From Escherichia phage AV122: a stretch of DNA of 64,000 nucleotides. Of the stretch, positions 3,770 to 46,036 are shown piece by piece. The stretch lies in sequence record OR352952.1; one strand, 5' to 3'. Position 1 is the first letter of the stretch. The number at the start of each line of letters is the position of its first letter. Under the pieces are notes generated by a model that was not told where the DNA came from, ran no database searches, and was given only the letters and a program-made list of their open reading frames with translations. Both the position numbers and the translations under genes were made by a program.

Positions 3770-5094
3770 TTGATTTCCTCTAAATCTTTGGTGTATTCGG
3801 TAACTACATCAGTAGTTTTCCAATATTCGTTTTCTTCTTTTTTAGCTTTAGCTTCTTCATCAAGTTTCTTTGCTTCATCGGAAGTCATATGAAAAATATT
3901 CATTCCAACTAGTTTATCAACATAAGAAGAATACATCTCAATTTTAGAAAGTTCTTCAGTCAGTTCTTTACGAGTTTTACCCTGTACAACAATTTCACCT
4001 GAAATTACTTTCTTAATGAAATGCGCCTTGGCAAAGGCTAAACGAAATGCTGATTCAGTTTCTTTGATTTTGTTATCAATTCGTTTTTGGACATAAGTTT
4101 TACGAACTTCAACGAAGTCTTTGATTAAATCAACTACGTTATCGTAAACTTGCAGCTTTCCTTTCTCATTAATAACAGTAATATTCTGTGAACGACGCTC
4201 AATCAACCCGAAGTCTTTCATAATTTTAGCGTGACGTTCTTCTTCATTATCGCTCAAAGAGTATTCTTTGCGGAATTTAACTTTGAAGCCAAAACCATGC
4301 TCACCACAAGCATCATCCCACGTAATGAAGCCTTTATCTTCAAGCGGGTCTAAGATTTTACTCACATAAGTTTCACGATCATACTTATACGGAATCTCAG
4401 TGATATGCATTTGAGTTCGTGAAGTAAACTTATATGTTCCACGAATTTCATACTGCCCATCAATTTCAACAACTTCACCACGAAATTCTGGGAATTCTAC
4501 CTTCGGTTTAGTTACTTTCTTTCCTTGAAGAGCTTGTAATACAGCTTTCCTGACAGAAGAAACACTATGAGGAAGAATGTAAGTTGCATAACCAGTTGCA
4601 ATACCGGAAACACCATTAAGAAGAACAGTAGGAATAATAGGCAAATAGAAAGCAGGCGGAATGTGTTCTTTATCTTGATGTACCGGAGCATATTCAGTAT
4701 CTTTATATACGTTATAGAAATTTTTACTTACACGAGCAAAAATATAACGACTTGCGGCTGCCTTTTGGACAGTACGAGAACCGAAGTTTCCTTGGCCATC
4801 TAACAGAGGAAAGTTATTATTCCAAGTATTAGCCATCAAAGCACCTGCGTCTTGCGCAGAGTTTTCACCATGATGATATCCAAGGTCCGCTACACCACCT
4901 GCAATAGAAGCGAGTTTGTGAAACTTATCTTTATTTCCTCGTGCCAAATCAAGAGCTCGAGCAATAACAAATCGTTGAACTGGCTTAAATCCGTCAATCA
5001 TATTTGGGATAGCACGATTTTCAACCGTGTACATAGCATAAGCCAATGCTTCATTATCAATGATACTTTTTAAATCGCGATTATTCAGTTGCAT
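3766..5094 (-). CDS. 52: DNA topoisomerase II medium subunit (GyrA-like)
   Basis: 442 aa; GyrA-like N-terminus (...RALDLARGNKDKFHKLASIAGGVADLGYHHGE...) matching T4 gp52 as recalled. Confidence 0.92.
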   Translation of the reverse strand: MQLNNRDLKSIIDNEALAYAMYTVENRAIPNMIDGFKPVQRFVIARALDLARGNKDKFHKLASIAGGVADLGYHHGENSAQDAGALMANTWNNNFPLLDGQGNFGSRTVQKAAASRYIFARVSKNFYNVYKDTEYAPVHQDKEHIPPAFYLPIIPTVLLNGVSGIATGYATYILPHSVSSVRKAVLQALQGKKVTKPKVEFPEFRGEVVEIDGQYEIRGTYKFTSRTQMHITEIPYKYDRETYVSKILDPLEDKGFITWDDACGEHGFGFKVKFRKEYSLSDNEEERHAKIMKDFGLIERRSQNITVINEKGKLQVYDNVVDLIKDFVEVRKTYVQKRIDNKIKETESAFRLAFAKAHFIKKVISGEIVVQGKTRKELTEELSKIEMYSSYVDKLVGMNIFHMTSDEAKKLDEEAKAKKEENEYWKTTDVVTEYTKDLEEIK

Positions 5095-30190: not shown

Positions 30191-30547
30191 TTAAAAGAAT
30201 TTAAACTTTTTCTTTGATCTTTTATTAAATGCATCTTGTAGTTGCATTGTAATACATTTTTCTACATGAGGAGCTAACTCAGCTTTTCTTTCTTGGTCAA
30301 GAACAGCAAAGTCCATTACGACTTTTCCATCAACCCAATCTAATTTTGTCACATACACAATGTGTGTAGAACCATCTTCTAGTTTAATGACAATCTCCTG
30401 GATAACATTTTCCATGGCAGATTTAATTATCTTAAGAGATTCATTAAAAAGACGTTCTTTTCTTTCTTCTTCCCCCTCCGAAGAGGGGGATTCATCGATA
30501 ATTTCTAGATCTAAATCATCTTTATTCATTAAATTCTTCCATATCAC
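30191..30547 (-). CDS. 40: gp40-like protein (head assembly) by position
   Basis: 118-aa acidic ORF between uvsX and 41; start may be the internal MNKDD. Confidence 0.5.
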   Translation of the reverse strand: MIWKNLMNKDDLDLEIIDESPSSEGEEERKERLFNESLKIIKSAMENVIQEIVIKLEDGSTHIVYVTKLDWVDGKVVMDFAVLDQERKAELAPHVEKCITMQLQDAFNKRSKKKFKFF

Positions 30548-31703
30548 TTAGCTGATCTAGGTCAGTTTCTAAATCAGCAGCTGATTTACTTTTACTTTCT
30601 GGAGATTTAAATTTTTCAACTTTTGAGTTAATTAATTCATCAACTTCCGCTTCAACAATTTCATTACTATCAATAGCACCTAACTGATAAGCACGCTTAA
30701 TAGCATCACGGAATGGTTGATGCTTAAATAAAGGACCCCAGAATGTAGTGCAGTTGGTATCTTTTGCACGCCAAGATTTTTCTTCGCGAATCATCTCGCC
30801 GGTTTCTTCATCAAGAAATTCACGAGCATACCAACCATTTTTAGGTTTTACCACGAATCCTAATTCTAGAGCCATATCTAACAATCCAGAATAAGGATCG
30901 ATACCACCGTCAAATTTAACATCAATAAAGAATTTACTTTTTTCTTTAACGGTACGAGATTTTTCTACATTTAGAACAAATTGATACCCCTGAAGATCAG
31001 AACCATCTTTAATTTGACGTTTACCGATAATGAATACAGTATCAGCCGAATACATTACGCCTGTACCACCTGTCATCACGGTTTTACTAAACATTTCAAT
31101 TGTTTCAATTGTATGGTTAACCGCAACGCATGGAATATTTTTAATGCTAAAGTAAGGAGTAACAATACGGAATAATGACTTCAGCGATTTAGCACGAGTC
31201 ATATCTGCCACAGATTTTTCATTCAAGGCATCTTCAGTTTCTTTCTTAGAAGCCATATTACCGATTGAGTCGATGAATACAATAACTTTTTCACCGCGCT
31301 CAATAGCTTCAAGCTGATTCACCATATCAATTTTCAGCTGTTCAACTGACTGGATTGGCGTATGAATTACTCGTTCCGGGTCAACTCCCATGGATCGCAA
31401 ATAAGCTGGAGTAATACCAAATTCGCTATCATAGAATAGACAAACCGCGTCAGGATATTTGTTCAAATACGCCGCAACCATAGTCAAAGACATATTTGAT
31501 TTAAAGTGTTTAGAAGGACCTGCAAAAATAGTTAAACCAGACTGCATGCCGCCATCAATCGCACCAGAAATAGCAATATTAAGCATTGGAATTTTTGTAC
31601 GAATTACATCCTTTTCATTAAAGAATTTAGATGTAGTCAGTTCAGCAGTCATTTTAGAAGTGGAAGCTTTAATCAAACGGGATTTTAAATCTGCAATAGA
31701 CAT
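30522..31703 (-). CDS. uvsX: UvsX recombinase (RecA-like)
   Basis: 393 aa; Walker A GPSKHFKS; C-terminal acidic tail; very close to T4 UvsX as recalled. Confidence 0.92.
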   Translation of the reverse strand: MSIADLKSRLIKASTSKMTAELTTSKFFNEKDVIRTKIPMLNIAISGAIDGGMQSGLTIFAGPSKHFKSNMSLTMVAAYLNKYPDAVCLFYDSEFGITPAYLRSMGVDPERVIHTPIQSVEQLKIDMVNQLEAIERGEKVIVFIDSIGNMASKKETEDALNEKSVADMTRAKSLKSLFRIVTPYFSIKNIPCVAVNHTIETIEMFSKTVMTGGTGVMYSADTVFIIGKRQIKDGSDLQGYQFVLNVEKSRTVKEKSKFFIDVKFDGGIDPYSGLLDMALELGFVVKPKNGWYAREFLDEETGEMIREEKSWRAKDTNCTTFWGPLFKHQPFRDAIKRAYQLGAIDSNEIVEAEVDELINSKVEKFKSPESKSKSAADLETDLDQLSDMEEFNE

Positions 31704-31780
31704 TCATTTTTTCCATAGGCATCATTATATTTTCCTCACTGGTTAAAGATAGAGTAATTATAACACAATAAATTTAGGCA

Positions 31781-32629
31781 TTAATCAACTGCTATTGGAT
31801 GAATAGCATTAAACTTATGAAATGCTTCTGATTTTTCTTTACGCGAAACACACATGCGAAGAACCTTTAATGGCTCGTCTTCTTCACCCAACGATTTTCG
31901 TTTTTCAATATTCGACGTTTTCCAACGAGCTTGCTCTGGAAACTCTCTATTGATTTGCTCAAGCGCTCTATTATGTTTAGAATTACTACGAATTGAACTA
32001 CACCCACCAGGAGCTTGCGCTTTACCTGATACAACCAGATATTTGAACAAGGCCAAATGCGGATAACCTTGATTAATTAAATTGAGAAATGCATACATAT
32101 CTTCGCACAAATCAATTTTTCCATACCCAATTTGTTCTGTCGTAAGTTTTCCAAGGTCATACCATGTATTCGTGAATCCATATGAATTTTCACGATAATT
32201 ACCCCAAGATGAAGTAATTTTAAAAATTGGTAGGCGAGCATGACCGTGATAATACCCGCAATCCATGGCATCTTCGACGTATTGAATCAATTCATAGAAC
32301 TGTTCACGGGTTAATTGATTGACTTTATCCACACAACGACGGTCATCTCTTTTTCGCATTGAACTCATACGAATAGTAGTATCATCGTCAATCATCCAGA
32401 TTCGTTGGCCTGCATACATATCAGTAATTGCTTTACGAGTACCAGCAATTCCATTTACATCATCAGGAATAGTTATAATTTTAGCTCTAGACCCATAGGC
32501 ATCATAATAAGCTTTTTCTTCGTGTTCACGTACTACAATATGTGGTTCATAATCAGTCGGAAACATATCAAGGGCAGAAACTGCCCCGACACGCTGATAA
32601 CTTGGAATTACGAATTGAATCATTTCCAC
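31781..32629 (-). CDS. putative GT-A-fold glycosyltransferase (candidate DNA hydroxymethylcytosine sugar transferase)
   Basis: 282 aa; N-terminal IPSYQR and WMIDDDTT (DxD) motifs; occupies the uvsX-42 slot that holds beta-gt (351 aa) in T4. Confidence 0.5.
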   Translation of the reverse strand: MEMIQFVIPSYQRVGAVSALDMFPTDYEPHIVVREHEEKAYYDAYGSRAKIITIPDDVNGIAGTRKAITDMYAGQRIWMIDDDTTIRMSSMRKRDDRRCVDKVNQLTREQFYELIQYVEDAMDCGYYHGHARLPIFKITSSWGNYRENSYGFTNTWYDLGKLTTEQIGYGKIDLCEDMYAFLNLINQGYPHLALFKYLVVSGKAQAPGGCSSIRSNSKHNRALEQINREFPEQARWKTSNIEKRKSLGEEDEPLKVLRMCVSRKEKSEAFHKFNAIHPIAVD

Positions 32630-33360
32630 TCACCTTTATAGTCTTTTTTCACAATATGAGTTTCGCCAGTATTCCACCAATGATCAACCAAGTAAAAATG
32701 ACGAGAATATACATGAAGACTTCCAACATTCCATATAATAGAACCTGCTTTATACTGACGAGTTGAATCGCCTGCATTCAAATCAGATACTAATTTATCT
32801 AATACGTATTTTTGCCATGCATAATCATTACGGAATCCGAAGACCACGTCATTTGAGCGCATGCTTACTACTGCATTGACTTTCTTATCACGAATCAGGT
32901 ACTGTACTGTATTAGTACACATGAAATCTGACATACCATCTTTATTGTAGTCAAATTGCATGGATGGACGAGTATAAATCATGATACCACGTCGAGAATC
33001 AGGATTTTGACCAAGTTCAGCTAAACACATATCATACTGGGCATAGTTATCTTCTGACCAAATAGCCCAACCATAATTCGAGTTAATTTCACCTTTAGAA
33101 GATGCTACCTGCTGCCAAATTTTCGGTGTTTCACCTGGAATATCTTTAACAAACAAGCTCTTAGATTTATACCATTCAAGTTCACGCTGAATGTATTCAT
33201 CATTAAGAGCGCCAAAAATAAACGGTTCATCTGCTACAAATGATGCGCCAATAATTTCAATAGTTTTAACGCCAGTTTTATCAACTACGAAATCTTTTTC
33301 TTTTAATGCAGTTCCCAAATAAAAACGGATTTCTTCAACTGTCATAGAGTCATTAATCAT
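32620..33360 (-). CDS. 42: dCMP hydroxymethylase
   Basis: 246 aa (same as T4 gp42); thymidylate-synthase-like sequence. Confidence 0.9.
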   Translation of the reverse strand: MINDSMTVEEIRFYLGTALKEKDFVVDKTGVKTIEIIGASFVADEPFIFGALNDEYIQRELEWYKSKSLFVKDIPGETPKIWQQVASSKGEINSNYGWAIWSEDNYAQYDMCLAELGQNPDSRRGIMIYTRPSMQFDYNKDGMSDFMCTNTVQYLIRDKKVNAVVSMRSNDVVFGFRNDYAWQKYVLDKLVSDLNAGDSTRQYKAGSIIWNVGSLHVYSRHFYLVDHWWNTGETHIVKKDYKGEWK

Positions 33361-33513
33361 TTAAACCTCAATTGATGCATTCATATTTAAATTGTAACAG
33401 TAATAAACCCCACCCTATGATAAGAGTTGGAATCATAGCAGGAACTGTTACGCTATAGTATATACTTATTATAACCATCAAGATTAAAAGCAACACTGCT
33501 ATAATTTTGCTTT

Positions 33514-33765
33514 TCATTCCTTCTCTCTGATGATAATTACCTGATTTGGTTGTGCAGACTTTTTAGTTTCACCCGCAATTGACCAAATAAATGTAATAAA
33601 CCAACCAATAATTGACCAGTTAAACAGTAAAGATGTGAAAAAGATTCCTACTGTCGATTTTGACCCACGCATCAAGGCGATAAACCATGGAAGCATGTAT
33701 ATAATAATAGCCAACACGCCTGAAACTAAAACCATAAAAATTGAACCTGCTACTAAAGTTTCCAT
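33514..33765 (-). CDS. imm: immunity protein Imm (superinfection exclusion)
   Basis: 83 aa (same as T4 Imm), two TM helices, directly downstream of 42. Confidence 0.7.
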   Translation of the reverse strand: METLVAGSIFMVLVSGVLAIIIYMLPWFIALMRGSKSTVGIFFTSLLFNWSIIGWFITFIWSIAGETKKSAQPNQVIIIREKE

Positions 33766-34163: not shown

Positions 34164-34400
34164 TCAAATGCAAGTAGTAATTACTCCAGTAGTGCTTATG
34201 CAGGTATTACCCATTTGCACACCTAAAGATCCATTTGTATTCACATGAAGATTATCATCAATTTTAACTGATATTTTACCATTAGTGTGAATAACGGTGC
34301 TAGATTCAATCACAGGTTGAGTATCATTTTCAACACTAACAAATGGAACTGCTGCTAATGCAACTAAACAAACTGCTAAGCATCCCATAACAATTTTCAT
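34164..34400 (-). CDS. small secreted protein (78 aa)
   Basis: Trimmed to ATG 34400 (MKIVMGCLAVCLVALAAVPF...), signal peptide. Confidence 0.5.
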   Translation of the reverse strand: MKIVMGCLAVCLVALAAVPFVSVENDTQPVIESSTVIHTNGKISVKIDDNLHVNTNGSLGVQMGNTCISTTGVITTCI

Positions 34401-34434
34401 TTTATTCTCCAAATCCGTATTAGTTGATAGTTGT

Positions 34435-43040: not shown

Positions 43041-44056
43041 TGTGTTGCCTCTACATATAGCTGATTCGCATATTGAATAAGTGCTTCACGGTCAGAATCA
43101 GTGATGTCTGGAATTGCATTAATGTATTCTTCCATCAACGTCTGAAGAGATTGAACTTCAACTTCTTCACTTTCATCTGACTCGACAGAGTTATCAATTT
43201 TTGACACAACTCGTAATGAATGCACAACTTTTTCTAGTTCAGATTCGAACTTCGTTAGATTTTTGTCTACTTCAGTTACTATAACACGTACTGATAGATT
43301 TGTAAAATCTTTATAGTCAATTTTTCCTTTAAATGGATAATGAATTCTACGATGCCAGGTAGTATTGTTTGGAATAAATTCCATTCGTTCTGTTTCTGTA
43401 TCAAACATCCAGAACCCACGAGGGTCATTCTCGTCACCTGCAGTTAGTGTCCATGGTGTCCCAATATATCTGACGTTAGCAGCCTCAGAGATAGTATGGA
43501 AGTGACCAGACCACACTTCTTTATAAGTCTTAAGGAAATCAGGTTCAAGACCGTGAGATTTCATTCCTTTATAAAAATAAAATCCATTCAGTTCCCAGTG
43601 ACCAACACAAAAAGAAGCAGATGAAGTTTTGATGTGTTCAAGAATTTCACCAGTATTTTCTTCACACATCCAAGGAATTAAATCAATTAAACATCCGTCA
43701 AAATCTACTGTAGTAGGCTTATCATATACTTTAACATTAGGATATTTAGCCAAAAGCTCAGTAGAGGCATTTGGATGCATTACATTTTTGTAGTGGAGAT
43801 CGTGATTTCCTACAATAGTATGTAATGTGATTCCAGCGTCATCAAGCATTTGAACTATTTCACGGGCAAACTCCATAGTTTTATGTGTGATTGCTTTTCG
43901 CACATCAAAAATATCACCGTATTGAATCCATACCGTAATTCCATTTTTCTTAGAATATTCTATCGCTTGCTTAATTCCATCAATTTGAATACCGCGAATC
44001 CACTCATCATCAGCTTTAACGCCTAAATGCCAATCACCCAAGTTTAGTATTTTCAT
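43037..44056 (-). CDS. 47: recombination nuclease subunit (Mre11/SbcD-like)
   Basis: 339 aa (same as T4 gp47); calcineurin-like phosphoesterase motifs GDWHLG, GNHD. Confidence 0.9.
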   Translation of the reverse strand: MKILNLGDWHLGVKADDEWIRGIQIDGIKQAIEYSKKNGITVWIQYGDIFDVRKAITHKTMEFAREIVQMLDDAGITLHTIVGNHDLHYKNVMHPNASTELLAKYPNVKVYDKPTTVDFDGCLIDLIPWMCEENTGEILEHIKTSSASFCVGHWELNGFYFYKGMKSHGLEPDFLKTYKEVWSGHFHTISEAANVRYIGTPWTLTAGDENDPRGFWMFDTETERMEFIPNNTTWHRRIHYPFKGKIDYKDFTNLSVRVIVTEVDKNLTKFESELEKVVHSLRVVSKIDNSVESDESEEVEVQSLQTLMEEYINAIPDITDSDREALIQYANQLYVEATQ

Positions 44057-44657
44057 GGTGTCTTTTCCATCCTAATTTAGCTGCTTTTGAAACCAGTTCT
44101 TTAATTTTTCCTTTTGTCCATTCAGGACCAGGAGGTTCATGACATAACATTTGCTTAACTCCGTTATTATACCATTTTTTACCTTTATTATGTGATGAAG
44201 CTTTAAATTTATTTGACCTTCCTTTTACATAACCTTCTGGAATATAAGGCAAAAAGGCAGATTTTCCTGTTAATGGATCATGTGAATGTATATTTCCTTT
44301 ACAATTATGAGAACCATATAATGGATGATTTTGTCCTTTATTATCTCTTCCAAATGAACCTTTTGGAGCAGCATATGACATATTAAAGAATAATGGATTT
44401 TTAACTGCATCATGCAATCGTTGATAATATAACTCGCATTTAATAGCTTCTTCACGCGTATCAAATTCAGCTAAAATGCATGAATCAAATAAGTGAGGAT
44501 TATCTGAAAGCTCTTTATTATAAATTTTCTTATACTTTTTAGATAAAACTGAACCATGATATCCAGCTAAATGCCTATCTAAAGACGTAGATCCAATATA
44601 AAAAGGAGGAAGTTTATCTCCGCTATATATTGTTAAATAAGTTATATATTTTTTCAT
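44034..44657 (-). CDS. GIY-YIG homing-endonuclease-like protein
   Basis: 207 aa; TIY...(8)...FYIGST...R...CILAEFDTREEAIKCE... parallels I-TevI GIY...YVGSA...CSILEEIPYEKDLIIERENFWIKE; also a G-x-NHP-x-YG motif as in Seg proteins. 3' end overlaps gene 47 start. Confidence 0.6.
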   Translation of the reverse strand: MKKYITYLTIYSGDKLPPFYIGSTSLDRHLAGYHGSVLSKKYKKIYNKELSDNPHLFDSCILAEFDTREEAIKCELYYQRLHDAVKNPLFFNMSYAAPKGSFGRDNKGQNHPLYGSHNCKGNIHSHDPLTGKSAFLPYIPEGYVKGRSNKFKASSHNKGKKWYNNGVKQMLCHEPPGPEWTKGKIKELVSKAAKLGWKRHHENTKLG

Positions 44658-44817: not shown

Positions 44818-44835
44818 AAAGGGCCGAAGCCCTTT
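44818..44835 (-). other. CUUCGG-tetraloop hairpin overlapping a-gt stop
   Basis: aaagggc-cgaa-gcccttt. Confidence 0.45.
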
Positions 44836-46036
44836 ATTTTGTAATAATGTCAAACTGTTCTTTAAAGCAGAAGCTTGAATCTTGATGCTGATACAAAAAT
44901 TCATACGCTTTTTCTCGCTCACGGTCATAAAGAGCTCGGTCAGATGACAGTTCTTTAATACGCTCGAATGTTGATTCCATATCATTTTCATCAAACCAAA
45001 TGATACCGCTATCATGTGAGGTCAAAGGAGTATTATCAACACGGAATTTTAAATTTTCGCCAGTAGATTTCCAAAATACCGGAATTGTTCCACATGCACC
45101 AAGCTCGAGATGAGTATATTCTAAAGAACGTTGTAAATATTTTTTATCCAACTTACTCAACTGATAACCAAATCCGGATTTACTCATACGCTCAAGCATT
45201 TCGCTATTTACATAACGGTCAAGAATTTGCGTTGGCAAATTAGGAGCAATTTTAATTTGGTCTACTTGATGAAGACGATAATACTCGTATGGAATTCCTT
45301 TTTCTTTAATAGGAATGAATGCTGGAGAACGTTCCAGACCTTCCATAATAGTACTTAGTCCTGCAGGTTTAAGATGTTTTTCGTGAAAATCAAACATCTG
45401 ATAAAACCCCTTCCATGTAGTCGTACGACCAATCCAACGGTTGACATTCATGTTAATTTCAGAAACATCTTTCCAGTAGGTTGACCGAACCTTCGCAATA
45501 TCCATAGGAGGCTGAAAGTTATATACGGTCGGCGCTTCTTCAATATCATCAAACAGAGAAACAGTTTCTGGATACCATTCTTTCATCAGAACTTTATTAA
45601 AATCACCATTATCAGAATGGCTAAAAATAACATCAGCTCGACGAACAGTTTCTTCTAATCCCAAATTTCGGCGCAAAGAAAGAGAAGAATGGTCATGTTG
45701 ATAAACTACAACACGAACCGAAGGTTTAATGTTATCAATAATTTTTTTATAGTTATTAATAGTGTCTTCTTCAACTGAAGTAGCAGGAACTGAATTGATA
45801 ATTAGAATATCACAATCATTTACCAGCTTAAGTGTTTTATCGTATTCTTTTGCCAATAAAACCGGAATTGAAAATGATTTATAATCATGCGCACAGTTAC
45901 GAGTAAATGATTTATCTTTGGCATAAACCAAAGTTACTTCATGACCATTTTTAATAAACCAATCACGTTGCTCAAGAGAAAATTTAGTTACACCGCAACC
46001 TTCAAGACCTCGAGCCATAAAAATACATACTTTCAT
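44834..46036 (-). CDS. a-gt: DNA alpha-glucosyltransferase
   Basis: 400 aa (same as T4 alpha-gt); MKVCIFMARGLEGCGVTKFSLEQRDWFIKNGHEV... matches T4 alpha-gt as recalled. Confidence 0.9.
   Translation of the reverse strand: MKVCIFMARGLEGCGVTKFSLEQRDWFIKNGHEVTLVYAKDKSFTRNCAHDYKSFSIPVLLAKEYDKTLKLVNDCDILIINSVPATSVEEDTINNYKKIIDNIKPSVRVVVYQHDHSSLSLRRNLGLEETVRRADVIFSHSDNGDFNKVLMKEWYPETVSLFDDIEEAPTVYNFQPPMDIAKVRSTYWKDVSEINMNVNRWIGRTTTWKGFYQMFDFHEKHLKPAGLSTIMEGLERSPAFIPIKEKGIPYEYYRLHQVDQIKIAPNLPTQILDRYVNSEMLERMSKSGFGYQLSKLDKKYLQRSLEYTHLELGACGTIPVFWKSTGENLKFRVDNTPLTSHDSGIIWFDENDMESTFERIKELSSDRALYDREREKAYEFLYQHQDSSFCFKEQFDIITK

Follow-up and report, generated by a model that had tools for sequence, protein, structure and literature searches.

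Phages T2 and T6 lack a beta-glucosyltransferase (beta-gt), and their beta-glucosyl-HMC-alpha-glucosyltransferase (ba-gt, also named ggt or TAGT) produces gentiobiosyl-hydroxymethylcytosine (gentiobiosyl-hmC) by attaching a beta-1,6-linked glucose to alpha-glucosyl-hmC (PMC6024577; PMC13160076). The presence of gentiobiose in T6 DNA is traced in PMC13160076 to Kuno and Lehman (1962). Gentiobiosyl-hmC accounts for ~5% of the hmC in T2 and ~72% in T6 (PMC6024577; PMC13160076), and deletion of the T6 g-gt gene converts gentiobiosyl-hmC into alpha-glucosyl-hmC, at ~75% (PMC13160076). A TAGT is also described in Tequatrovirus phages of the Durham Collection (QOTSP, TB37, NR1 and CP; PMC13390438). 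HPLC/MS of QOTSP and TB37 DNA revealed approximately two-thirds alpha-5-gentiobiosylmethyl-dC and one-third 5-hmdC, with a trace of the alpha-glucosyl form and no beta-glucosyl form, and the authors credit the TAGT with the second glucose (PMC13390438). The discrimination of TAGTs between alpha- and beta-linked first sugars is not settled (PMC13216743).

In phage T4, the corresponding region is organized as uvsX - segA - b-gt - 42, with segA beside b-gt. The beta-gt of T4 (PF09198) occupies the same slot between uvsX and gene 42 as ba-gt, uses the same UDP-glucose donor and likewise forms a beta linkage on hmC DNA. The two enzymes differ in fold, GT-B in beta-gt and GT-A in ba-gt (PMC13216743), and in acceptor, which is bare hmC in DNA for T4 beta-gt and the glucose of alpha-glucosyl-hmC for ba-gt. 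Among 753 phage genomes that encode glucosyltransferases, just 6 were reported to combine alpha-GT and beta-GT (PMC13216743).

We analysed a stretch of 64,000 nucleotides from Escherichia phage AV122 (OR352952.1), referred to here as the window, which shares 97.8% DNA identity over 24 kb with the Tequatrovirus phage vB_EcoM_G4507. The gene found between uvsX and gene 42 of this window encodes, with a probability of about 0.93, a T2/T6-type beta-glucosyl-HMC-alpha-glucosyltransferase. An earlier sequence-only reading of the locus had proposed a GT-A-like glycosyltransferase in the place where T4 encodes its 351-aa beta-gt, and both statements hold, although segA, which also lies there in T4, had gone unmentioned. 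The window protein matches PHROG 842, whose name designates the same enzyme, with E = 6.4e-89, and Pfam PF20691 (TET-associated glycosyltransferase, TAGT) with 38.9 bits against a gathering cutoff of 27.5, covering profile positions 2–205 of 205. It is 100% identical to a protein of phage vB_EcoM_G29 and identical at no fewer than 279 of 280 residues to the QOTSP and TB37 proteins. At the DNA level, the genes of the Durham phages are ~98% identical to the window gene, with only silent or near-silent differences.

Comparison with the T2 protein (MH751506) showed 99% amino acid identity over 280 aa, with R11H and P251S (window residue first) as the sole substitutions. In the annotation of MH550421, the T6 protein is identical at 258 of 261 residues, the three substitutions being Y40N, D55G and R106H (window residue first, T6 residue last), and a second T6 record (AP018814) gave 99% identity. 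No further difference from the T2 and T6 enzymes was found. The order uvsX - ggt - 42 is common to T2 (MH751506) and T6 (MH550421), and the synteny extends likewise to AR1, QOTSP and TB37. Position, 99% amino acid identity, the alpha-gt partner, the conserved motifs and the predicted GT-A fold are thus shared with the T2/T6 enzymes. The window protein is the T2/T6 enzyme proper and no variant of it, and every testable defining feature is present. No observation argues directly against this assignment.

The coordinates of the gene, its neighbours and its motifs are given in Table 1. On the minus strand, gene 42 adjoins ba-gt on the 5' (upstream) side and uvsX on the 3' (downstream) side. No segA is present between uvsX and ba-gt in the window, where only a 77-nt intergenic spacer was found; this spacer is identical in T6 and AR1. 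Between gene 43 and uvsX, the window encodes nothing other than imm, imm.1, gene 42, ba-gt and two small ORFs. With this gene content, and in a Tequatrovirus genome, an arabinosyltransferase of the Mosigvirus (RB69) type, which would go with a UDP-arabinose gene module in the same interval, is unlikely. The two small ORFs encode hydrophobic products without a Pfam match; AR1, T2, QOTSP and TB37 have counterparts listed as hypothetical proteins, whereas the T4 reference record carries no annotation for them.

Table 1. Features of the ba-gt locus and of the alpha-gt region in the AV122 window (residues in 280-aa numbering).
Feature	Coordinates	Strand	Remarks
uvsX	30522..31703		downstream neighbour of ba-gt
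Intergenic spacer	31704..31780		77 nt
CDS ba-gt / ggt / TAGT (beta-glucosyl-HMC-alpha-glucosyltransferase)	31781..32623	-	280 aa + stop codon
E174-D175 ('CEDxY')	32099..32104	-	D175 and Y177 invariant, E174 nearly so
DDD (DxD motif)	32381..32389	-	residues 79–81; end of strand E74-78 in model
IPSYQR	32591..32608	-	residues 6–11; just past first beta-strand
Gene 42, dCMP hydroxymethylase	32620..33360	-	ORF list; annotated at syntenic position in AR1, T2, T4, T6
Shine-Dalgarno-like AGGTGA	32630..32635	-	6 nt upstream of ATG 32623; read from sequence
Small ORF	33368..33517	-	49 aa; gene 42/imm gap
Small ORF	34164..34412	-	82 aa; imm.1/gene 43 gap
Seg-like ORF	44034..44657	-	207 aa; directly downstream of alpha-gt
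Alpha-glucosyltransferase (a-gt)	44834..46036	-	Pfam PF11440, E = 3.9e-237

The ORF from which the sequence-only reading started (31781..32629, minus strand) is genuine. Its length of 282 aa was counted from a GTG start in the window ORF list, 6 nt upstream of an ATG at 32623, which is the likelier translation start and gives a product of 280 aa with the N-terminus MIQFVIPSYQR. The ATG is preferred because of the spacing of the Shine-Dalgarno-like element and because the homologues in AR1, T2, G29, QOTSP and TB37 are each annotated at 843 nt. The GTG at 32629 sits flush against this element and was rejected as a start on the same two grounds. The placement of AGGTGA and ATG is conserved in T6 and AR1. 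As read from the sequence, the ATG shares the tetranucleotide ATGA with the gene 42 stop codon, an overlap that suggests translational coupling of gene 42 and ba-gt.

The motifs IPSYQR and DDD, on which the proposal of a GT-A-like enzyme had been based, are both present in the protein. In an alignment of homologues down to 32% identity, residues I6, P7, S8, Y9, R11, D79, D80 and D81 were invariant. An AlphaFold2 model built from a 10-sequence alignment reached a moderate mean pLDDT of 69.5 and a pTM of 0.71, with residues 1–125 confidently modelled and a poor C-terminal tail. In this model, the protein displays a predicted GT-A fold with a DxD motif, and not the two-domain architecture of a GT-B fold. 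Strand E3-7 precedes IPSYQR and strand E74-78 ends at DDD. These are the canonical positions of GT-A enzymes, in which the DxD motif binds metal and diphosphate and an N-terminal motif following a strand binds the nucleotide. By analogy with GT2-like GT-A enzymes, IPSYQR would bind the nucleotide (UDP), DDD would coordinate a divalent metal and the diphosphate of UDP-glucose, and E174/D175, comparable to the GT2 ED motif, would be a candidate catalytic base. A GT-A fold, sister to GT2, was likewise deduced for the T6 enzyme from an AlphaFold3 model published in 2026 (PMC13216743), in agreement with our reading of the window model.

The putative acceptor-binding part of the protein was poorly modelled, as residues 126–151 and 203–211 showed pLDDT values below 50 though strongly conserved. 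Residues 126–151, HGHARLPIFKITSSWGNYRENSYGFTNT, are among the most conserved stretches of the family, with a pLDDT of 30–50 and without modelled secondary structure. They may represent an acceptor (DNA/glucose)-binding loop that becomes ordered only upon substrate binding. A phmmer search against PDB sequences returned no solved structure of a family member by sequence, yielding only chance matches (E > 1).

Homology to T4 beta-gt was considered and rejected. In BLASTP, the window protein showed no significant similarity to T4 beta-gt, the best match having E = 2.2 over 8 residues, and a tblastn search with T4 beta-gt detected no counterpart anywhere in the 64-kb window (best E = 1.4, with nothing below E = 1). 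The two enzymes are thus unrelated, as had been proposed. Besides PF20691, the window protein has no Pfam match, and the Pfam GT2 models were not reached. Cellular GT2 enzymes with a GT-A fold, such as the bacterial cellulose synthase BcsA, TarP and AvpGT, share only 6–17% sequence identity with it, and they act on polysaccharide or lipid-linked glycan, whereas the acceptor of ba-gt is a sugar on DNA.

When 50,697 phage records were searched by megablast with the ORF, 474 were found to contain ba-gt full-length at 90–99% DNA identity (counted as full-length matches with an identity of at least 90%). Nearly all belong to T4-like phages of Escherichia, Shigella, Yersinia, Salmonella or Citrobacter, and in most of them the gene is annotated as “beta-glucosyl-HMC-alpha-glucosyl-transferase”. 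The T4-type beta-gt was present in 29 phage records, mostly T4 stocks. The novelty that the sequence-only reading had implied is therefore not upheld: in Tequatrovirus, ba-gt is what this slot commonly carries, and the T4 pair of alpha-gt and beta-gt is the rare exception.

The annotation of these genes is not uniform across records. In RB55 (KM607002) and RB59 (KM607003), the label “beta-glucosyl-HMC-alpha-glucosyl-transferase” is attached to a gene that shares 100% identity with T4 b-gt, and in AR1 (AP011113) the ba-gt gene bears the gene name “b-gt”. Transfer of annotation by name only would consequently mislead.

Both enzymes needed to make the acceptor of ba-gt, gene 42 and alpha-gt, are encoded in the window. 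The T4-like alpha-gt that had been reported at 44834–46036 was confirmed by its Pfam match (Table 1) and by 503 matching phage records, the best of which is the annotated alpha-gt of phage vB_Eco_CP at 99.4% DNA identity. Separately, the ORF directly downstream of alpha-gt has an N-terminus resembling GIY-YIG homing endonucleases (seg-like), and its match to Pfam PF01541 (21.4 bits, E = 3e-4) lies just below the curated cutoff of 22.6.

In the proposed pathway, gene 42 would provide hydroxymethyl-dCMP, so that phage DNA would be replicated with 5-hydroxymethylcytosine, and alpha-gt would place an alpha-linked glucose on hmC. The GT-A enzyme ba-gt would then use UDP-glucose to add a second glucose, beta-1,6-linked to the first, generating gentiobiosyl-hmC. 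Such an activity of the window protein is predicted from the literature on proteins at least 99% identical to it. With an alpha-linked donor and a beta-linked product, ba-gt would therefore be an inverting transferase.

The TAGT family of Pfam is a broad one, and in many phages a solitary TAGT of undefined specificity is present (PMC13216743), which leaves room for a sugar or an acceptor other than those of T2/T6, for example bare hmC or another nucleotide sugar, and hence for a modification unseen in these phages. We consider this very unlikely for AV122, since the window protein is 99–100% identical to enzymes of phages with measured gentiobiosyl-hmC (PMC13390438), shows just 3 differences from the T6 enzyme over the 261 positions compared and is accompanied by its alpha-gt partner. 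Of the second sugars that had been suggested for this phage, the T2/T6-type gentiobiosyl linkage is thus supported by the 99% identity to the T2/T6 enzymes, while the suggestion of another sugar finds no support.

A different question is how much of the hmC would be gentiobiosylated. The gene of T2 is 99% identical to that of the window, yet T2 DNA contains only ~5% gentiobiosyl-hmC (PMC6024577; PMC13160076); therefore, the presence of the gene alone cannot predict the level, and AV122 might resemble T2, with DNA that is mostly alpha-monoglucosylated. However, the window protein has neither R11H, which in T2 alters the otherwise invariant IPSYQR, nor P251S, the second T2 substitution, and it is nearly identical to the proteins of QOTSP and TB37, whose DNA is about two-thirds gentiobiosylated. 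A T2-like low level in AV122 thus appears very unlikely. That the window allele produces an undescribed pattern, such as glucosylation past the disaccharide or a different ratio, is scarcely credible, and the sequence gives no hint of it.

A T6-like pattern is instead expected for AV122, in which most alpha-glucosyl-hmC would be converted into gentiobiosyl-hmC, approximately a quarter to a third of the hmC would remain bare and no beta-glucosyl-hmC would be formed. This expectation follows from the retention of R11, as in T6 and the Durham phages, in place of the H11 of T2. The same pattern as in QOTSP and TB37 is expected because of the near-identity of the proteins (at least 279 of 280 residues) and the shared gene order.

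In T2 (MH751506, 6289–7128), codon 11 of the gene, within the IPSYQR motif, encodes H; the equivalent codon in the window is 32591–32593. An exact match to the first 121 nt of the T2 gene was found in 8 records, comprising 7 of T2 and SV76, all of the T2 lineage, while G29, one of the next-best records with 1 mismatch in 121 nt, encodes R11. R11H, together with P251S, is a plausible candidate explanation for the difference between ~5% gentiobiosyl-hmC in T2 and 72% in T6.

Lesions were also observed in the two T6 records, which are independent of each other. In MH550421, codon 10 of ggt (~4951–4953) is an amber TAG, compared with CAG (Q10) in the window and in all other phages compared, and the gene is annotated from the internal Met20 with a length of 261 aa. 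In AP018814 (931–1767), Q10 is intact, the invariant DDD motif is one codon short and the product has 279 aa. Either mutation of laboratory stocks or sequencing error may account for these different lesions. The lesions matter since T6 provides the reference value of 72% gentiobiosylation.

The presence of ba-gt in this slot is already known and belongs to textbook T-even biology. Gentiobiosyl-hmC withstands the glucosyl hydrolase BapA (PMC13160076), and susceptibility to type IV restriction (e.g., GmrSD) and to DNA glycosylases (e.g., Brig1) varies with the sugar pattern (PMC13216743). For annotators, AV122 is a T6-like and not a T4-like modifier, and its DNA should be handled as gentiobiosyl-hmC DNA in the choice of restriction enzymes, sequencing chemistry and host strains.
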